This document shows positions 1,736-27,098 of a stretch of 64,000 bases of DNA, piece by piece (positions within the stretch are counted from its first letter, which is position 1; the number at the start of each line of letters is the position of its first letter). The notes under the pieces are model-generated. The model searched no databases. It was given only the letters and a program-made list of their open reading frames with translations, and was not told the origin of the DNA. The position numbers were made by a program, and so were the translations under genes. Source of the stretch: Candidatus Bathyarchaeia archaeon. Lineage in GTDB: Archaea; Thermoproteota; Bathyarchaeia; Bathyarchaeales; Bathycorpusculaceae. The stretch spans positions 1 to 64,000 of the forward strand of contig JAVZLQ010000004.1 of the NCBI GenBank assembly GCA_038883655.1, written 5' to 3'.

Positions 1736-3433
1736 CTAGTTAGCTATGCTATATCTACCTTTTTTCAAGAACTGCTTTTCATATATCTCTTTAACCCTTT
1801 GTATAGTGTCTGCTTCTTCTGGAGATTTGTCCTCCCTTATGCGGCTTATTCTTGCGAAACGTAGAGCCATGCCGCACTTGTATTTTGAGCTCCTCTGAAT
1901 CTCGTTATATGTTACTTCAACAACTATTTTTGGGGCGACAAACACTCTTCTTGGCTCCTCTTTTATGGTTATTTCTTTGAGTCGCTTTGTCATCTCAATA
2001 ATTTCAGCATCTGTTAATCCCTTAAATGTCTTGCCAACAACTAGGTATTCGCCAGTTTCAGCGTCACGCGCAGCTAAGTAATAATCTGAAAGCCACTCAT
2101 GCCTCCTCCCGTAGCCGTATTCCGCGGCAACAATAACCAAATCTAATGGTTCAAGAACCGGCTTTATTTTGTACCAGTGTTTTCCGCGCGTTCCTGGCAC
2201 ATAGGGACTGTCTGGCTTTTTAGCCATTAATCCTTCATGCCCGTTGTCTAATGCTTCTTTCAAGAATTGTTCTGCCTCCTTGACATTGTCTGTTACTATT
2301 TGTTTTGTTAATGGAATTTCTCCAGCATTTTCTGCCAATTTTTGTCTCCTTTGCGTGTATGGAAGCGAAATTAGGCTTTCGCCGTTTAAGTACAGAATAT
2401 CAAACAAGTAGAGTTTTATGGGAATCTTTTCGGCTACGTCCTCTATTTCGCGTAATCTTTTGAACCTTCGCATTAAATGTTGAAAAGGTATTGGGTTTCC
2501 AGCTTTGTCTACGGCTATGACTTCGCCTTCAACGATTGTTTCTTGAGCTTTAAAGCCTTTCTTTATCGCCTCAACGATTTCTGGTAAGCTTTCTGTGACA
2601 TCCGTTAATCTTCGACTAAATATGCGGACTTTGTCACCAAGCTTGTGTATTTGAACTCTTGCTCCGTCTAATTTGTATTCGAAAGCTGTTTTTCCGCCAT
2701 GCTCTTTTAAGGCTTCAGTAACATCATTTGCCATCTGCGCCAACATCAGTTTGACTGGTTTAAAAACTTTAAAACTGACTTTTAGTAGTCCATCAGCGCC
2801 CTCTTTTTTGGCTATGGTTGCAACTTCGCCTATATCGCCCACAGTCATGCCGGCTTTTTGAATGACTTCTAATGGAATTTTGAAGGCTTTTGATATTGCT
2901 TGTTCCATTAATCCTTCATGGAAGCCCGTTCGCATTTCGCCTATGAAAATTTTCACAATGTATTTGGCTTCTACGGGTGAGGCTAGGCTTAACAGGGCTT
3001 CTATTAGGCGTTCTTTTCTTTCTCTTGAGCCCTGCCCCACAGCTTCGGCTATTTCCTCGAAGCTTCGTCTAACCTCGGTTATTGTTAAGGCTCTCTCCAA
3101 AAGTGTTGCTTGTCTCTTGATTCTGCCTCTTTCGAATATTGTTTTTGTGGCTGAGCCTATGTCGCCTGTTTCGCCGAAAACTTTTGTGAATGTACTCCAG
3201 TCCACGTTGGTTATTCGCATTATTATACCGCTCAGTGTTGCCCAACTTACCTCAAGCGTTTTTTGGCTCCATTTCGGGAACGGTCTTCCAAGAATCATAG
3301 CCACCGCCGGCTCAACCTCGTTTGGCTCAAGATTTTTTATAAAATCTGCTACAGCGTCTATCATGGCGAGCCTTTTTGTTGTAGCTTCCAGTCTTTCGCA
3401 CAGTTCAGCCAATGCTTTAAATGGTGTAGGCAT
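1736..3433 (-). CDS. lig: ATP-dependent DNA ligase
   Basis: EYKLDGARVQIH motif I, EGLMAK, KIKP, LRFARI. Confidence 0.97.
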   Translation of the reverse strand: MPTPFKALAELCERLEATTKRLAMIDAVADFIKNLEPNEVEPAVAMILGRPFPKWSQKTLEVSWATLSGIIMRITNVDWSTFTKVFGETGDIGSATKTIFERGRIKRQATLLERALTITEVRRSFEEIAEAVGQGSRERKERLIEALLSLASPVEAKYIVKIFIGEMRTGFHEGLMEQAISKAFKIPLEVIQKAGMTVGDIGEVATIAKKEGADGLLKVSFKVFKPVKLMLAQMANDVTEALKEHGGKTAFEYKLDGARVQIHKLGDKVRIFSRRLTDVTESLPEIVEAIKKGFKAQETIVEGEVIAVDKAGNPIPFQHLMRRFKRLREIEDVAEKIPIKLYLFDILYLNGESLISLPYTQRRQKLAENAGEIPLTKQIVTDNVKEAEQFLKEALDNGHEGLMAKKPDSPYVPGTRGKHWYKIKPVLEPLDLVIVAAEYGYGRRHEWLSDYYLAARDAETGEYLVVGKTFKGLTDAEIIEMTKRLKEITIKEEPRRVFVAPKIVVEVTYNEIQRSSKYKCGMALRFARISRIREDKSPEEADTIQRVKEIYEKQFLKKGRYSIAN

Positions 3434-3522: not shown

Positions 3523-3921
3523 CTAGAATGAAGCTTCCAGCTTCTCTTTTATCTCCCTTATCTTTTTCTTCAATTCTTCTACTTTTTCTTTATTCTTTAA
3601 AGCTTCATAGCAGTCTCTGGCATATTCCAGTGCGCTGACACCGTATCTGTCGAATCCCTTGTTGAAGGACAGTTCTGCGGATTTCATAAAATGTTCAACG
3701 GCGGTTTCATAATCCTTAAGCATGTAAGCGCATTCTCCAGCCTTGTAAAGCATCGACGTAGCATCGAAAAAGTTGTTTTTCTTTAGGTAAAGCTCTGATG
3801 CTTTTAGAAATTTTTCTAGGGCTTCCTTGTACTTGCCAGTTTCAAAGAGCGTGTTTGCATCTTTGTGCAGCTTTACAGGGTCTTCCTCAACTTTTTCTCC
3901 GTTCATACCCAATCCGCTCAT
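3523..3921 (-). CDS. Short TPR/alpha-SNAP-like helical repeat protein
   Basis: Repeated helix pairs (GKYKEALEKFLKASELY, KDYETAVEHFMKSAEL). Confidence 0.7.
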   Translation of the reverse strand: MSGLGMNGEKVEEDPVKLHKDANTLFETGKYKEALEKFLKASELYLKKNNFFDATSMLYKAGECAYMLKDYETAVEHFMKSAELSFNKGFDRYGVSALEYARDCYEALKNKEKVEELKKKIREIKEKLEASF

Positions 3922-4042: not shown

Positions 4043-5434
4043 ATGACTTTAGAATGCCTTAAATGCGGCGCAGAATTTCCAATGTTCCCTCCACGTAGCT
4101 TATGCGAGAAGTGTGGAGGCTTACTAGGCTATAATCTGCCTGTTTCCTCTACACGTAAACTAGGAGTTTTGGGTTATGCTGGCTTTTGGAGGTATAAGCG
4201 TCTGCTTCCGCCAGTTAGGCACATGATAACTTTGGGCGAGGGCGGCACACCCCTACATAGGGCTGATAGGCTCGCCAAACTTTTGGGTTTAAAAGAGCTT
4301 TACTTGAAAGATGAAACTAGAAACCCAACAAACTCATATAGAGACCGCGCCGCGGCTCTGCTGACATCAAATGCCCTAGACCTCAAACATGATACACTCG
4401 TATGCGCGAGCATGGGAAACCTCGGCGCCTCTGTGGCTGCTTACTGTGCAAAGGCTGGGCTGAACTGTCACGTCATAGTGCCCAAACTCGTTGATGTTGG
4501 TAAACTGGCGCAGATGCTAGTTTATGATGCTGTTATTGAAGAATTTGGCGAATTCATTGACGACGCAATACATAGAGCTGAGGCGTTGGCAAGAGAGATG
4601 AACTGGTATCAAGCAACCGCGGAATTGAATCCCCTTGTAATTGAGGCACAGAAAACAATTTCGTACGAAATTTTCGAACAGTTCGGGGCTCCAGACTGGA
4701 TGATAGTTTCCATGGGTAGCGGCGGAACAATATATTCGCTTTGGAAGGGCTTCAAAGAACTTGAACGGTTAGGCTTGGCGAAAAGGCTTCCGAGAATGGT
4801 CGGTATCCAACCTGAAGGAAGCTCGGCAATAATTAAGACGCTGCTTAAGAGAGGACGTATATCAGCAAAGCCTTCAACAAAAGCCCTTGCCCTGCTTGTT
4901 AAAGAGCCGATGCAAAGCGAACTCGCAATAAAGGCGATAAAAGAATCAGGAGGCTTAGCCTTAACAGTTTCTGACAGCGAAATTTTCGCGGCTGAACTCA
5001 CCATAGCCAAGTATGAAGGAATATTTGCAGAACCATCAAGCTCGGCTGAAATTGCCGCTTTGGAAAAACTTGTTAAAGAAGGACATATCACCAAAGAAGA
5101 AAGTGTCGTGTGTCCAATAACTGGAAGTGGGCTCAAAGCTACGGATATACTTCAAGCGTTAACTAAGAAGCAGAAGACGGCAGTTTTAGGTTTAGAAATA
5201 AGTACAAAAGAGAAAATTTTGAGGATTCTCAAGGAAAGGGATGCTTACGGCTACGATTTGTGGGAAAAACTTGGGAAAACAATGACAAGAGCCGCCATAT
5301 ACCAGCACTTAACAGAACTATATGAAAAAGGTTTGATAGTAAGCTACAGAAAGGACAGACGAAAATTCTTCAAAATAACACAACGCGGCAAAAAAGTTCT
5401 ACAAGCAATTGATGATTTAAAACTGCTTCTATAA
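4043..5434 (+). CDS. Threonine-synthase-like (fold-type II PLP) protein lacking the Schiff-base Lys, fused to a C-terminal PadR-like winged HTH
   Basis: N-terminal CxxC..CxxC, TLGEGGTPL, NPTNSYRDR (canonical NPTGSFKDR), ASMGN, ITGSGLK; tail ILRILKERDAYGYDLWEKL...IYQHLTELYEKGLI...RKFFKITQRG. Confidence 0.85.
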   Translation: MTLECLKCGAEFPMFPPRSLCEKCGGLLGYNLPVSSTRKLGVLGYAGFWRYKRLLPPVRHMITLGEGGTPLHRADRLAKLLGLKELYLKDETRNPTNSYRDRAAALLTSNALDLKHDTLVCASMGNLGASVAAYCAKAGLNCHVIVPKLVDVGKLAQMLVYDAVIEEFGEFIDDAIHRAEALAREMNWYQATAELNPLVIEAQKTISYEIFEQFGAPDWMIVSMGSGGTIYSLWKGFKELERLGLAKRLPRMVGIQPEGSSAIIKTLLKRGRISAKPSTKALALLVKEPMQSELAIKAIKESGGLALTVSDSEIFAAELTIAKYEGIFAEPSSSAEIAALEKLVKEGHITKEESVVCPITGSGLKATDILQALTKKQKTAVLGLEISTKEKILRILKERDAYGYDLWEKLGKTMTRAAIYQHLTELYEKGLIVSYRKDRRKFFKITQRGKKVLQAIDDLKLLL

Positions 5435-5449
5435 TGGAAAAAGCTAATA

Positions 5450-5471
5450 TAGTATAGTTATAACTATACTA
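5450..5471. promoter_or_regulatory. Perfect 22-bp palindrome, putative operator
   Basis: TAGTATAGTTA|TAACTATACTA lies immediately upstream of the ECF S-component gene. Confidence 0.7.
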
Positions 5472-5473
5472 AA

Positions 5474-6223
5474 TTGATCACGATGAACGGAAAGATTCAA
5501 CCTTTCAAATTCGCCATCACAGCTGTTTTCACAGCGCTTGTCTGCATAGTAACAGTAATTTTTTCGATTTATGTCCCTGCAACCAAGGGCTTCTTCAACA
5601 TAGGTGAATCCATGATTTTTCTTGGTGCGCTCCTTTTTGGACCCTTTGTTGGCGCTTTTAGTGGAGGGGTAGGCGCCATGTTGGCTGATTTGCTGTTAAA
5701 TTATCCGCATTATGCACCAGCTACGCTTTTTATAAAGGCATGCGAGGGGGCTGTTGTCGGTTTGCTCAAGAAAAGGAATCCTAAATTTAGTTCGAAATTC
5801 CAATGGAAATTTTTCACCATGCTTTTGGGTGTTATTGCTGGGGTTCTCTTAGGCTGGGTTGGCTCAACATACTATAGCGGTGAAATTCGGCTTACTCTAG
5901 GCTGGAGTACATTCACCTTTTATATGCCGATGGAGTTTTGGCTTATTTTGGGCGCGATAGTGGCAATATCCATAAGCGCGTTAGGTTTTTTGGCTGAGCC
6001 AGAATTCGGGTGGATGGTTTTTTCAGTTGTCGTAGGCGGTTTCGTGATGGTTTCTGGATATTTCCTCTATCAAATGTTTCTGATTTACCCGCTCTTCAAA
6101 ATTGAAGCTGTGGCAATAGCGGAAGTCCCAATTAACATTGGGCAGATGATGATAGGGGCAATCGTGGCATTACCTCTAGCAAAAGCGATGTGGCGCATAT
6201 TCCCGTACCTAAAAGAAAAATAG
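5474..6223 (+). CDS. ECF transporter substrate-specific (S) component, with extra central TM segments
   Basis: AVFTALV...VPATKGFFNIGESMIF...FGP..GAFSGGVGAMLADL...YAPATLFIKACEG. Confidence 0.85.
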   Translation: MITMNGKIQPFKFAITAVFTALVCIVTVIFSIYVPATKGFFNIGESMIFLGALLFGPFVGAFSGGVGAMLADLLLNYPHYAPATLFIKACEGAVVGLLKKRNPKFSSKFQWKFFTMLLGVIAGVLLGWVGSTYYSGEIRLTLGWSTFTFYMPMEFWLILGAIVAISISALGFLAEPEFGWMVFSVVVGGFVMVSGYFLYQMFLIYPLFKIEAVAIAEVPINIGQMMIGAIVALPLAKAMWRIFPYLKEK

Positions 6224-6263
6224 GCGAGGGCAATCAAGTTTAAAATCTATTAAGGAGGCTAAA

Positions 6264-7283
6264 GTGTTGTCTATTCCTTTTGGAAAAATTCCAATAAACC
6301 TACTAGAAAAGGTTGTTTTCAAAAATCTAGGAGTTAAACGCAAAGAAGTGATTGTTGGACCATCAGCGGGTTTTGATGGCACAGTTATAGATGTTGGCGA
6401 CAAATCCCTGATTGTTTCTATGGACCCTATTACTGGGGCTTTGGAGCGTATAGGCTTGTTGGCTTTGAACATTAACGCGAATGATGTTGCCACTTTCGGC
6501 GTTGAGCCGGCCTTCTTCTTCTCTTGCATATTGCTCCCAGAAAAAGCCGATAGAAGAATGCTTAAAACCATATGTACGCAGATGGATGCAGCAGCGAAAA
6601 ATTTGGGAATGGCGATTGCTGGAGGACATTGCGAAGTAACACCTGAACTAACTCATCCAATAGTTGTTGGCTGCGCCATGGGAGTCACGGAAAGAGGAAA
6701 TTATGTGACTGCTGGAAACGCCAAAGCTGGAGACAAGATAATTCTAACAAAAAGCGCTGGAATTGAAGGAACCGCAATCCTTGCTTCAGACATGGAAAAA
6801 GAACTAAAAATGGTTGTTGACGAAAAAACTTTGGCTAAAGCAAAGAAATTCTTCGAAAAAATCAGCGTTGTTAAAGACGCCATAACCGCCTTCAAAACAG
6901 GCGCAGTTCACGCCATGCACGACCCAACAGAAGGCGGCGTCGCCGGCGGCGTACACGAAATGGCAGATGCTTCGAAACTTGGCTTTAAAGTATATGAAGA
7001 GAAAATTCCAGTAGCCAAAGAAACCCTCCAAATTTGCCGCTTCTTTGATATTGACCCGCTTTGCTTAATTGCCTCTGGAAGCATTCTAATCGCTGCTAAA
7101 CGAGATTTAGCTAGCATTGTTTTGCAGAGTCTGGAGATAAATGGAATATCTGCAAATGTTATTGGCGAGTTTCTGCCAAATGCGGATAAGCGCCTAATCA
7201 AATGTAAGGATGGAAGCGAAAAAGAGTTGGTTAGACCAGAAAGTGACCATTTATGGCTAGTTTTAGAGAAGAAGTTAGGCTAG
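6264..7283 (+). CDS. AIR synthase (PurM/HypE/ThiL superfamily) protein
   Basis: DPITGA, NANDVA, GGHCEVT, AMHDPTEGG; lacks the HypE C-terminal PRIC. Confidence 0.85.
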   Translation: MLSIPFGKIPINLLEKVVFKNLGVKRKEVIVGPSAGFDGTVIDVGDKSLIVSMDPITGALERIGLLALNINANDVATFGVEPAFFFSCILLPEKADRRMLKTICTQMDAAAKNLGMAIAGGHCEVTPELTHPIVVGCAMGVTERGNYVTAGNAKAGDKIILTKSAGIEGTAILASDMEKELKMVVDEKTLAKAKKFFEKISVVKDAITAFKTGAVHAMHDPTEGGVAGGVHEMADASKLGFKVYEEKIPVAKETLQICRFFDIDPLCLIASGSILIAAKRDLASIVLQSLEINGISANVIGEFLPNADKRLIKCKDGSEKELVRPESDHLWLVLEKKLG

Positions 7284-8066
7284 GAGTTTGCTGAAGGATT
7301 TTCTAGGTCTTTTTAGCCTATTTATTTTCTGCTGTAGCCGTCTATAGATAAAATAGCCCCTAATATTTCGCATCATTTCATTAATTCCTTTTCCGTGGGA
7401 GTGTAAAACGCTGAATGATGGGTCAACAATTATTTTGTAGCCTCTGAAAAGCATTTCTTTACTCCAATCGTAGTCTTCTAAACCATACTTTCGGGTTTGC
7501 GGTATAATTTTTGGCAGGTTTTCATCGAAGGGGTAAACTTGCCATAGCGACTTTCTGATTATGCAGTTAATTGTGGAACACCAGTCTTGGCGCAAAACAA
7601 ATTTCTGCGAAAAATAGTATAAAAGTTTATCAAGATTTCCAAAAACCTTGCCCTCGCCATGGGGCAAAAAGAACCCGCTCACTCCTGCGACACTTGGATT
7701 TGTGAAATGTCTTACGCCATCTTGAAGCCAATGAGACGATGTTGGAAGAGAATGCGCGTTTGTTATGCAGACTAACTCGTTTCCTGCAGCATGTACACCT
7801 AGGTTCGTGGAGTACGCATGCGAAAATTCTTCATCTGATAAGGCGATAATTTTAAGGGCGATTTTCTTTTCTCGGAAAAAGTTCCAAAAATACTCTGACA
7901 CGTGGCTTTCAAGGAATCGCCTTTCCTCTTCTGAAGAATAATTGTTTACAATTATTATTTCTGATGGCGGCAGCGTCTGCATAGCCAGTCTTTCTAAAAG
8001 GCTTTCTAGGAACTTTTCCTTATCCCTTGTTCGAATCACAACTGAAACTTGCTTTTTGCTGTTCAT
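7275..8066 (-). CDS. Glycosyltransferase family 2 (degenerate DxD)
   Basis: VSVVIRT..., EIIIVNNYS, YPFDE, EDYDW. Confidence 0.8.
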   Translation of the reverse strand: MNSKKQVSVVIRTRDKEKFLESLLERLAMQTLPPSEIIIVNNYSSEEERRFLESHVSEYFWNFFREKKIALKIIALSDEEFSHAYSTNLGVHAAGNELVCITNAHSLPTSSHWLQDGVRHFTNPSVAGVSGFFLPHGEGKVFGNLDKLLYYFSQKFVLRQDWCSTINCIIRKSLWQVYPFDENLPKIIPQTRKYGLEDYDWSKEMLFRGYKIIVDPSFSVLHSHGKGINEMMRNIRGYFIYRRLQQKINRLKRPRKSFSKLLA

Positions 8067-26030: not shown

Positions 26031-27098
26031 TTGACGGTTAAAGATGAGCGTATTACCATGTTGCATGGCGCTGGCGGAACGGTGATGCACGATTTAGTTA
26101 AGAACTATATTGTGAAGTACTTTGGCGGCACGTCAGATTTTGAGGTGCCTCTCGAGGCTTTGGATGACGCCGCGGTTGTAGGCGACATTGTTTTGAAAAG
26201 TGATTCGCATGCTGTCAAGCCAATCTTCTTTCCAGGCGGCGATATTGGGCGTTTAGCTGTTTCTGGAACCGTCAATGATATTGCTGTTTTGGGCGCTGAA
26301 CCTTATGCTTTGGCTTGCGGTTTCGTTTTGGAGGAAGGTTTAGCTTTGGCTGATTTTGAAAGAATTTTGGTTAGTATGAGGCAGACCTGCCTTGAAGCTG
26401 GTGTAAGCATAGTTACTGGCGACACGAAGGTTGTGGAGAAAGGAAGCCTTGGCGGATGTATAATTAATGTTTCTGGAGTTGGCGGAAGAACAGCAGCTTT
26501 AGACAGCAACATTGGAGTTGTCAGGCGCTTTAGAAAGGGCTTCAACGCACGTTGGATTTTAGACTCAAACCTTGCTGTTGGAGATAAAATAATCCTTTCC
26601 GGGACTATAGGCGACCACGGTTTGGCTGTCTTGTCCGCGCAAGAGGGCTTAAACTTTGGAAGCGACATAAAATCCGATGTTAAGCCATTAAATCGTCTAA
26701 TTCAGCGTTTGCTGGGCGAGATTGGCGGCATAGTCGCCATGAAAGACCCCACCAGAGGCGGTTTGGCAGATGCCCTAAACGAGTTTAGCGAAAAATCCCA
26801 TGTCGGCATACTTGTTTATGAAGAACGTATTCCCATAAGGGGCAATGTTAAAGCAGCATGTGAAATGTTGGGTTTAGATCCACTCGAAATTGGAAATGAA
26901 GGAAAAATAATCCTAGGCGTGATAAAGGAGAAGGCAAATGAGGTTCTAGATTTCTTAAGGGCGACTGAAGAGGGAAAAGGCGCGGAAATCATAGGCGAAG
27001 CCACAGCGGACTTTGATGGCGTTGCTATGCAGACGGTTGTTGGCGGAAAAAGGATTATTCCTAGACCGGTTGGCGACCCTGTTCCAAGGATATGTTAG
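26031..27098 (+). CDS. hypE: Hydrogenase maturation carbamoyl dehydratase HypE
   Basis: HGAGG, FFPGGDIG, GTVND, GDTKVV, MKDPTRGG, C-terminal PRIC. Confidence 0.95.
   Translation: MTVKDERITMLHGAGGTVMHDLVKNYIVKYFGGTSDFEVPLEALDDAAVVGDIVLKSDSHAVKPIFFPGGDIGRLAVSGTVNDIAVLGAEPYALACGFVLEEGLALADFERILVSMRQTCLEAGVSIVTGDTKVVEKGSLGGCIINVSGVGGRTAALDSNIGVVRRFRKGFNARWILDSNLAVGDKIILSGTIGDHGLAVLSAQEGLNFGSDIKSDVKPLNRLIQRLLGEIGGIVAMKDPTRGGLADALNEFSEKSHVGILVYEERIPIRGNVKAACEMLGLDPLEIGNEGKIILGVIKEKANEVLDFLRATEEGKGAEIIGEATADFDGVAMQTVVGGKRIIPRPVGDPVPRIC

Follow-up and report, generated by a model that had tools for sequence, protein, structure and literature searches.

The first 64,000 nucleotides of contig JAVZLQ010000004.1 from a Candidatus Bathyarchaeia archaeon (assembly GCA_038883655.1, forward strand), hereafter called the window, contain a gene whose 463-amino acid product fuses a threonine synthase (ThrC)-like domain to a PadR-type winged helix-turn-helix (wHTH). 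Sequence comparison and structure prediction lead us to propose, with a probability of roughly 0.65, that this fusion protein is a homodimeric one-component repressor that senses pyridoxal 5′-phosphate (PLP) and controls vitamin B6 uptake, and that it is not a threonine synthase. Enzyme-derived transcription factors that sense PLP are a known kind of system, and the ThrC-PadR form is undescribed in the literature searched. A preliminary description of this DNA had noted the motif NPTNSYRDR with an arginine (Arg100) at the PLP attachment site, a PadR-like tail, a perfect 22-bp palindrome 15 bp after the stop codon and, downstream, genes for the S-component of an energy-coupling factor (ECF) transporter and for a member of the AIR synthase (AIRS) superfamily. 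All of these features are present at the locus, and Pfam matches support the tail and both downstream genes (Table 1).

Arg100 of the fusion protein aligns with the lysine of the SFKDR motif in 2ZSJ and 2D1F, and the protein thus lacks the Schiff-base lysine that marks a functional threonine synthase. At least 120 clusters of close homologues were listed. These proteins are 69-100% identical, nearly all are 463-470 amino acids long, all combine PALP and PadR domains, and arginine occupies the site in 120 of 120 among the matches listed. A more diverse set was drawn from the best 150 representatives of clusters formed at 50% identity, in which size windows of 400-520 amino acids with an aligned tail and of 340-450 amino acids delimited 76 full-length fusions and 64 tail-less ThrC proteins, respectively. 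Representatives below 400 or above 520 amino acids were dropped from this comparison, including several fragments and four lysine-bearing proteins of 614-622 amino acids (P0245, P0251, P0265 and P0267); the latter are ThrC-like and carry a C-terminal extension that aligns with the tail region and has a different architecture. A residue other than lysine is found in 74 of the 76 fusions (leucine in 19, arginine in 16, isoleucine in 16, valine in 6, threonine in 5 and others in a few) and lysine in two, whereas all 64 tail-less ThrC representatives retain the lysine. The expectation that homologous fusions would share the loss therefore holds for most of the family. The uniform arginine of the listed homologues, together with a contig from a separate study that shows zero differences over positions 4330-4532, rules out that codon 100 reflects a sequencing error or a private mutation.

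The genome also encodes a separate canonical ThrC, a possibility raised in the preliminary description, which is 369 amino acids long, reads NPTGSFKDR and lies on another contig (C1). In a FastTree phylogeny that set the query and the 76 fusions against an outgroup of 14 canonical ThrCs, drawn from the 64, all fusions form one clade apart from the canonical proteins with a branch support of 95, in a tree that was built with this program only and leaves 42 of its 88 inner branches unresolved. Within the fusions, an arginine-type clade of 25 members separates from a hydrophobic-type clade of 51. In four Bathyarchaeia loci (L016, L017, L018 and L020) a lysine-bearing canonical thrC gene lies just upstream of the fusion gene on the opposite strand, with a homoserine dehydrogenase gene nearby in L016. 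The thrC gene beside the fusion may be a relic of the gene duplication from which the regulator arose.

The rest of the cofactor cradle is retained by the 76 fusions to the same degree as by the 64 canonical ThrCs. The conserved motifs are N-P-T-x-S-F-x-D-R (N94 in 74 fusions, P95, D101 and R102 in all 76), G125/N126 (76 and 69), the glycine-rich loop G225-x-G227 (72 and 76), E330 (74) and T360-G-x-G-L-K365 (74 for the threonine and 73 for the lysine). Other positions are altered. Position 127 is leucine in 49 of the 76 fusions and alanine or threonine in canonical ThrCs, and position 199 is phenylalanine or leucine in 37 of the 76 as opposed to arginine, threonine or glutamine. Specifically, Met124, Leu127 and Val199 of the window's fusion protein replace Thr, Thr and Arg of 2ZSJ. 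We take these three positions, from the literature on Thermus thermophilus ThrC, to be the ones that hold the substrate phosphate.

The two parts of the protein are recognized separately by Pfam, which assigns residues 62-361 to PALP (E = 4.7e-76) and residues 392-454 to PadR (PF03551; E = 3.4e-11; 43.4 bits, cut-off 27). The latter match covers profile positions 1-74 of 75, which places the wHTH in the PadR family, and the reading frame runs on to a TAA stop codon at 5432-5434. The NCBIfam thrC model TIGR00260 scores the fusion above its cut-off (205.5 against 167.1), and NF004170, which models the whole fusion as 'threonine synthase', matches it from end to end with 406.5 bits against a cut-off of 421. 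Such ThrC hidden Markov model scores are blind to the missing lysine. Each of the N-terminal cysteines C5, C8, C21 and C24 is at least 90% conserved in an alignment of 50 sequences, and the canonical paralogue of the same genome carries an N-terminal cysteine motif of like kind.

An AlphaFold model of the fusion protein (mean predicted local distance difference test score, pLDDT, of 91.6) consists of a ThrC-like body at residues 1-374, a segment at residues 375-384 where pLDDT falls below 50, and a wHTH made of helices 388-398, 403-409 and 416-428, a beta hairpin at 432-445 and a final helix at 447-462. Threonine synthases are the best fold matches of this model (Foldseek E of 1e-30 to 1e-32; TM-score 0.85-0.90 on the target), at 34-39% identity to the matched structures. 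When modelled as a homodimer, the protein reached an ipSAE of 0.85, compared with 0.00 for the best of three controls; 20 of 30 solved homo-pairs and 1 of 23 single chains attain the mark used. Contact agreement between runs was at least 69%, partner pLDDT was at least 86, and the predicted interface lies within the ThrC-like domain. This result may stem from likeness to ThrC dimers that have already been solved and is not proof of dimerization.

The genomic neighbourhood points to vitamin B6. We scanned 77 loci, one genome per species, of which 34 carry a fusion gene and 43 a canonical thrC gene. Of the 34 fusion loci, 24 have a homologous S-component gene directly beside the fusion, as do 23 of the 28 with 1 kb or more on each flank, compared with none of the 43 canonical loci. 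The synteny put forward in the preliminary description thus extends across phyla, with hosts among the Bathyarchaeia, the Promethearchaeota/Hermodarchaeota/Thorarchaeota, the Nitrososphaerota and the Desulfurococcales; in the locus from the last of these, the S-component gene is followed by one for an ABC ATPase. The arrangement of the two genes is variable: they are convergent, divergent or, with the S-component gene downstream, on one strand. NF004170 found no match over its cut-off in 14 control genomes, which included Sulfolobus acidocaldarius, Haloferax volcanii and two methanogens, so the family is absent from the standard model archaea of this set.

The S-component of the window matches PF07155 with an E of 1.9e-35 (122.8 bits; cut-off 26.7), and a PDB search by sequence yields a single match, 4HZU chain S (E = 5e-10). 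In the available text of PMC9997740, PF07155 is the family of the only known ECF transporters for B6, PdxU and PdxU2/HmpT, and 4HZU chain S is HmpT, for which transport of pyridoxamine is reported in the available part of PMC4860826. Six pocket residues of HmpT are named there, and four of them (E41, Y120, N140 and Q143) are identical in the S-component, whereas Lys stands in place of H84 and Glu in place of Q87. Taken alone, the second half of this alignment is weak. Between the aligned halves, residues 102-177 of the S-component form an insert of about 75 residues (246 amino acids in all compared with 166), which probably adds membrane helices. An EcfT gene is present in the genome (PF02361, 115.7 bits, contig C3). 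Judged by its sequence, the S-component looks like a B6 importer.

The palindrome that precedes the S-component gene, TAGTATAGTTATAACTATACTA, is the proposed operator. It occurs once in the window and in none of 100 shuffles, and it is the sole site within five mismatches in the 1.42-Mb genome. No second copy was found within that distance, for example at another B6 gene, so the regulon in this genome seems to comprise a single site. Perfect palindromes of 22 bp number four in the genome, and those of at least 20 bp number six, against 0-2 in three shuffled genomes. The three remaining 22-bp palindromes (C1:353882, C2:48425 and C5:27044) are possibly operators of other regulators.

Related palindromes recur upstream of ECF S-component genes as a family with the form TA(G/T)TA(T/A)AGTT-N2-AACT(A/T)TA(C/A)TA, plus lineage variants. 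Bathyarchaeia carry TAGTA(T/A)AGTT-NN-AACT(A/T)TACTA; Asgard archaea carry TATATAAGTT(T/C)AAACTTATATA, often as two copies in tandem; and Thorarchaeota and Nitrososphaerota carry ATATATAGG(T/C)T-N4-...TTATATAT. A best palindrome of at least nine matched pairs is found in 17 of 24 regions upstream of S-component genes, compared with 31 of 282 upstream of other genes in the same loci. Also, the upstream region of a strong PF07155 gene in a Thermococcus metagenome-assembled genome (MAG), in which the fusion is unlinked, contains the palindrome TTTCAAGTTAAAACTTGAGA. No palindrome was seen upstream of the fusion genes in L030, L036 and L040. The two-fold symmetry is kept across phyla while the letters drift, and such sites are also found between divergent genes, which fits the binding site of a dimeric protein and not a terminator. 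Furthermore, several metagenome contigs (runs X2-X5) match positions 5440-5471 only and diverge before 5439 and after 5471, so among strains that occur together conservation is confined to the operator. Orthologous loci repeatedly show an A/T-rich box immediately 5′ of the palindrome. If CTAATATA is the TATA box of the S-component gene, the operator would span the stretch from TATA box to start, a classic place for an archaeal repressor to act.

Members of the same operator family are found at genes for B6 synthesis. In three genomes of one Bathyarchaeia family (L114-L116), a long-type fusion gene (475-494 amino acids) is divergent from pdxS-pdxT, and operator-type palindromes lie inside the 35-150-bp spacer between fusion and pdxS. 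In another genome (G061) the S-component promoter has two tandem operator sites, and an unlinked pdxS gene has TAGTAAAGTTCTAACTTGAATA directly upstream, with two mismatches to the consensus of the clade. The operator motif was found at pdxS in none of six genomes in which the fusion was not found. The palindrome first described as operator-like is thus one of a conserved operator family, both upstream of S-component genes and at pdxS/pdxT. These pdxS/pdxT operators, the PdxU2/HmpT-like S-component and the hydrophobic residues at positions 127 and 199 together narrow the ligand to B6, most likely PLP.

Many of the organisms concerned seem to lack B6 synthesis. The genome of the window, which is 93% complete, contains no PdxS, no PdxT and no PF08543 match over the cut-off, and no ThiL at E <= 1e-25; the organism may therefore be auxotrophic for both B6 and thiamine. 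PdxS was likewise found in none of ten further fusion-bearing genomes from other lineages, all of which are MAGs of unknown completeness. Among 151 sampled genomes of the class Bathyarchaeia, 24 have PdxS, 126 have ThiL, 71 have a PF08543 match and at least 51 have the fusion, the last count being a minimum given that the 130-amino acid fusion query overlooked a long-type fusion in at least one case (L123). The class is mostly auxotrophic for B6.

These observations suggest the following mechanism. A ThrC-fold domain without its Schiff-base lysine would hold PLP only reversibly and could thereby report the free PLP pool. Dimerization through the predicted ThrC-like interface would bring one PadR-type wHTH domain to each half-site of the 22-bp palindrome. 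The PLP-bound dimer would occupy the operator and block transcription initiation of the B6 importer gene, and the AIRS-like gene behind it would probably be repressed as well. When PLP is scarce, the dimer would leave the operator and uptake would rise. In relatives able to make B6, the pair of regulator and operator lies at the pdxS-pdxT promoter. The host of the window's system, a hot-spring Bathyarchaeia MAG, would depend on salvage because it has neither PdxS/PdxT nor a kinase of the PdxK/ThiD type, and the AIRS-like enzyme may, more speculatively, use ATP to carry out a step of salvage, for instance the phosphorylation of a vitamer.

Table 1. Features of the proposed B6 uptake locus (positions in the window; a point marks a feature without strand).
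Feature	Position	Strand	Basis
Gene for fusion of ThrC fold and PadR-type wHTH, 463 aa, proposed B6-sensing regulator	4043..5434	+	Open reading frame, Pfam, AlphaFold
N-terminal CxxC...CxxC zinc-ribbon-like motif (C5, C8, C21, C24)	4055..4114	+	Translation
Fold-type II PLP-enzyme domain, residues 62-361, proposed sensor	4226..5125	+	Pfam PALP
Arg100 codon AGA, at the position of the PLP Schiff-base lysine	4340..4342	+	Sequence, alignment
Flexible linker, residues 375-387	5165..5203	+	Low pLDDT in model
PadR-type wHTH, residues 388-462	5204..5428	+	PF03551, model
Putative TATA box CTAATATA of the S-component promoter	5444..5451	+	Read from sequence
Perfect 22-bp palindrome TAGTATAGTTATAACTATACTA, proposed operator	5450..5471	.	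15 bases past the fusion stop codon
ECF S-component, PdxU/PdxU2(HmpT) family, 246 aa from ATG at 5483; in-frame TTG at 5474	5483..6223	+	PF07155
AIR synthase superfamily (PurM-fold) ATP-using enzyme, candidate B6-salvage enzyme	6264..7283	+	PF00586 and PF02769

The AIRS-like gene is neither of the two relatives that it most resembles. Its product scores 121.4 against the HypE model TIGR02124 (cut-off 251.6) and 80.4 against the ThiL model TIGR01379 (cut-off 184.15). HypE needs a C-terminal cysteine, and the AIRS-like protein ends in ...LEKKLG without a terminal cysteine. The HypE identity was therefore rejected, the more so as the window holds a true HypE gene at 26031-27098 on the plus strand (TIGR02124, 363.8 bits), from which it follows that the organism probably matures a [NiFe] hydrogenase. 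The ThiL identity was rejected on its score and on the separate true ThiL in the class genomes. A look-up in the ESM Atlas returned only generic 'AIR synthase family' clusters. With representatives in 133 of the 151 class genomes, the AIRS-like protein is a distinct and nearly universal paralogue of the class.

The only recurrent informative neighbour of the AIRS-like gene is the PdxU-like S-component gene, in varying orientation. The AIRS-like gene is present in 9 of the 34 fusion loci, and the linkage to the S-component is also seen in further class genomes, in 4 of 14 loci chosen because no fusion was found nearby, and in a Nitrosopumilales MAG. Among the neighbours of unlinked fusion genes and of unlinked AIRS-like genes, no recurrent informative partner besides the S-component emerged. 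In one locus (L113) pdxS-pdxT lies behind the AIRS-like gene in the same orientation. Nearly all PF08543 matches in the class lie in open frames of about 440-530 amino acids that, from size alone, read as ThiD-ThiN fusions, so a dedicated PdxK seems rare. On the strength of its conserved linkage we tentatively name the AIRS-like protein as a candidate for the enzyme of an ATP-dependent B6 salvage step, a reading that we hold to be less likely than not. Of the uptake-plus-activation unit proposed in the preliminary description, the activation half is thus suggested by this linkage only. Away from the S-component, the AIRS-like gene lies beside Cdc6/Orc1 in 4 of 14 loci (L127, L128, L131 and L133). 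HAD-family hydrolase genes are found close to it in two loci (L127 and L130) and next to the fusion gene in a third (L078).

Several observations weigh against a PLP-responsive repressor of B6 uptake. We infer that the protein binds PLP and DNA, and likewise the direction in which it exerts control. The loss of the lysine is not obligatory for the family, given that lysine-bearing fusions occur in 6 of the 34 loci (Asgard L026, L027, L029 and L031; Bathyarchaeia L023 and L024) and that the two lysine-bearing representatives among the 76 sit within the arginine clade, beside the query. The replacing residue varies by clade, arginine in one and Leu/Ile/Val/Met in the other, and could reflect different ligands. 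No S-component gene is found in the available sequence of 9 of the 34 fusion loci, and in one more it lies 2.9 kb off; among the 28 loci that extend 1 kb or more to either side, five lack an adjacent S-component and have unrelated neighbours. No clear palindrome was seen at two of three unlinked strong PF07155 genes (L090 and L091), nor was an operator seen at pdxS in G087, a genome that holds both fusion and pdxS. PdxS is found in 5 of 51 fusion genomes and in 19 of 100 genomes without the fusion, which is no sharp anticorrelation. The salvage role is affected as well, as the AIRS-like gene is present in 18 of 24 PdxS-bearing genomes and is thus not confined to auxotrophs, and to our knowledge phosphorylation of a hydroxymethyl group is not a known chemistry of the AIRS superfamily.

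The lysine-bearing fusions form a sub-clade (including P0123 and P0124) that reads NPTNSFKDR and comprises Asgard and a few Bathyarchaeia proteins. They still adjoin an S-component gene with tandem operators, and they may be reversions or may bind PLP covalently. Reversion is compatible with the tree because a change from arginine to lysine takes a single base, and the tree is too weak to decide.

The strongest competitor of the proposed PLP-responsive repressor keeps the regulator and the operon and alters the signal. The ligand might be an unphosphorylated vitamer, a PLP-amino acid adduct, O-phosphohomoserine or threonine, or the apoprotein might repress and the ligand induce. We consider this unlikely. 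The arginine of one clade and the hydrophobic residues of another would permit different ligands, canonical thrC stands head to head with or near the fusion in the four loci mentioned above, and the homoserine dehydrogenase gene of L016 belongs to the same picture. However, the genes that carry the operator are pdxU-like and pdxS-pdxT and not those of the threonine pathway, and conservation of the PLP phosphate loop and the ring-contact motifs accompanies a turn to hydrophobic residues at positions 127 and 199. As for the direction of control, induction by substrate would also be sensible for a unit of uptake plus salvage, but it misfits pdxS-pdxT, whereas feedback repression by the end product fits both types of target. 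The suggestion in the preliminary description of a pseudoenzyme regulator that senses B6 or a phospho-amino acid is accordingly supported by computation in its regulator and B6 parts, and the phospho-amino acid is disfavoured.

A second alternative, which we regard as very improbable, reads the locus as one for salvage of thiamine or hydroxymethylpyrimidine. The S-component would then be HmpT in its original sense, the AIRS-like protein a thiamine-monophosphate kinase and the ligand a thiamine-related compound. According to the available part of PMC4860826, the closest solved S-component was indeed first named for hydroxymethylpyrimidine. The AIRS-like protein is a weak match to ThiL, and the genome lacks both ThiL (at the threshold given above) and ThiD. 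Against this, a true ThiL is found over the cut-off in 126 of the 151 class genomes, away from the AIRS-like gene, both regulator and operator also occur at pdxS-pdxT, and HmpT is reported in PMC4860826 to bind pyridoxamine. Furthermore, the AIRS-like gene of L113 precedes pdxS-pdxT on the same strand, and the sensor domain has the fold of a PLP enzyme.

The least probable alternative, that the protein is no regulator but a ThrC paralogue in decay or with a moonlighting function, its tail serving some other purpose, with the palindrome as a promoter or RNA-level element, can draw on the TIGR00260 score above cut-off and on the resemblance of the palindrome centre, TTATAA, to a TATA box, yet it is at odds with a large and conserved family (at least 120 clusters at 69-100% identity, fusions in several phyla), an intact fusion frame with a high-confidence fold, a tail that passes the Pfam cut-off for a PadR wHTH, a two-fold symmetry that outlasts sequence drift around centres that are not TATA-like in other lineages, and palindromes between divergent genes, where a terminator reading fails.

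A PLP-sensing repressor of the proposed kind would most resemble PdxR and other bacterial regulators of the MocR/GabR type, which likewise join an enzyme-derived PLP-binding domain (in the fusion, the proposed PLP sensor) to a winged helix, form dimers and act at repeated or palindromic operators near the promoter. PdxR regulons include pdxST, pdxK and pdxU, and MocR proteins are stated to be absent from Archaea, both in the available part of PMC5320631. With sites at pdxU-like genes and at pdxS-pdxT, the operator family described here outlines a regulon of the PdxR type, a functional likeness and not homology. MocR proteins have an N-terminal wHTH of the GntR type and a fold-type I aminotransferase-like domain that keeps its lysine, whereas the fusion has no GntR match, a C-terminal PadR-type wHTH and a fold-type II ThrC-like domain that has lost the lysine in most members. 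The two architectures are not homologous, and the design is therefore convergent.

The fusion also shares features with its closer relatives. Like the short-type archaeal and bacterial ThrCs (2ZSJ, 1UIM and 6CGQ), it has the ThrC fold, an N-terminal cysteine motif of the kind seen in the canonical paralogue, and a predicted dimer surface that is ThrC-like; unlike them, it has arginine for the Schiff-base lysine, an added 90 amino acids of linker and wHTH, and a vitamin-uptake context. With the PadR family it shares the PF03551 wHTH and, by prediction, binding to an inverted repeat as a dimer. Classical members of that family are small proteins with an N-terminal wHTH and a C-terminal dimerization helix; they respond to phenolic acids or other small molecules and contain no enzyme-derived domain. 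In contrast, the wHTH of the fusion is a C-terminal appendage of a 370-amino acid sensor. A further parallel is ThiR, an archaeal one-component regulator of thiamine metabolism in which a ThiN domain, derived from a biosynthetic enzyme and without catalysis, is joined to a helix-turn-helix and controls genes of vitamin synthesis and uptake. ThiR differs from the fusion in enzyme fold, vitamin and DNA-binding domain. The S-component belongs to the same family (PF07155) as PdxU2/HmpT (4HZU chain S) and differs from it in the length and in the two pocket replacements given above.

If the proposed reading is true, the fusion family fills a gap, for the literature searched, from which subscription journals and supplements were excluded, describes neither a ThrC-PadR fusion nor an archaeal regulator of B6. 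The defined operator makes the candidate regulator testable. The family would also be a case of a pseudoenzyme that passed from enzyme to sensor by loss of a single residue, convergent with PdxR. Proteins of this family are routinely named 'threonine synthase' (in NF004170 and in the source names of homologues), a label that inflates the apparent capacity for threonine synthesis in archaeal MAGs. Also, the scarcity of PdxS in the sampled Bathyarchaeia flags most of the class as B6 auxotrophs, which is useful in the design of cultivation media. An 'alternative B6 kinase' is still to be found according to the available text of PMC9997740, and the AIRS-like gene is a concrete candidate for it. 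A broader proposal would make the fusion a widespread archaeal B6 regulator, a lysine-less fold-type II pseudoenzyme independent of MocR/PdxR, and the AIRS-like protein the missing vitamer kinase or salvage enzyme other than PdxK, with positions 4043-7283 as a complete uptake-and-activation module. Taken as a whole, this combination is doubtful in our judgement.

The other genes that flank the locus in the window are unrelated to it. On the minus strand, positions 1736-3433 hold a 565-amino acid open reading frame whose translation, with a KLDGAR motif, reads like an ATP-dependent DNA ligase, and positions 3523-3921 and 7275-8066 encode a TPR protein and a family-2 glycosyltransferase. Finally, positions 1333-4059 of L078, from a Nitrosopumilales MAG, contain a gene for a eukaryote-type topoisomerase IB, inside which weak LAGLIDADG and intein-splicing matches fall below the cut-off.

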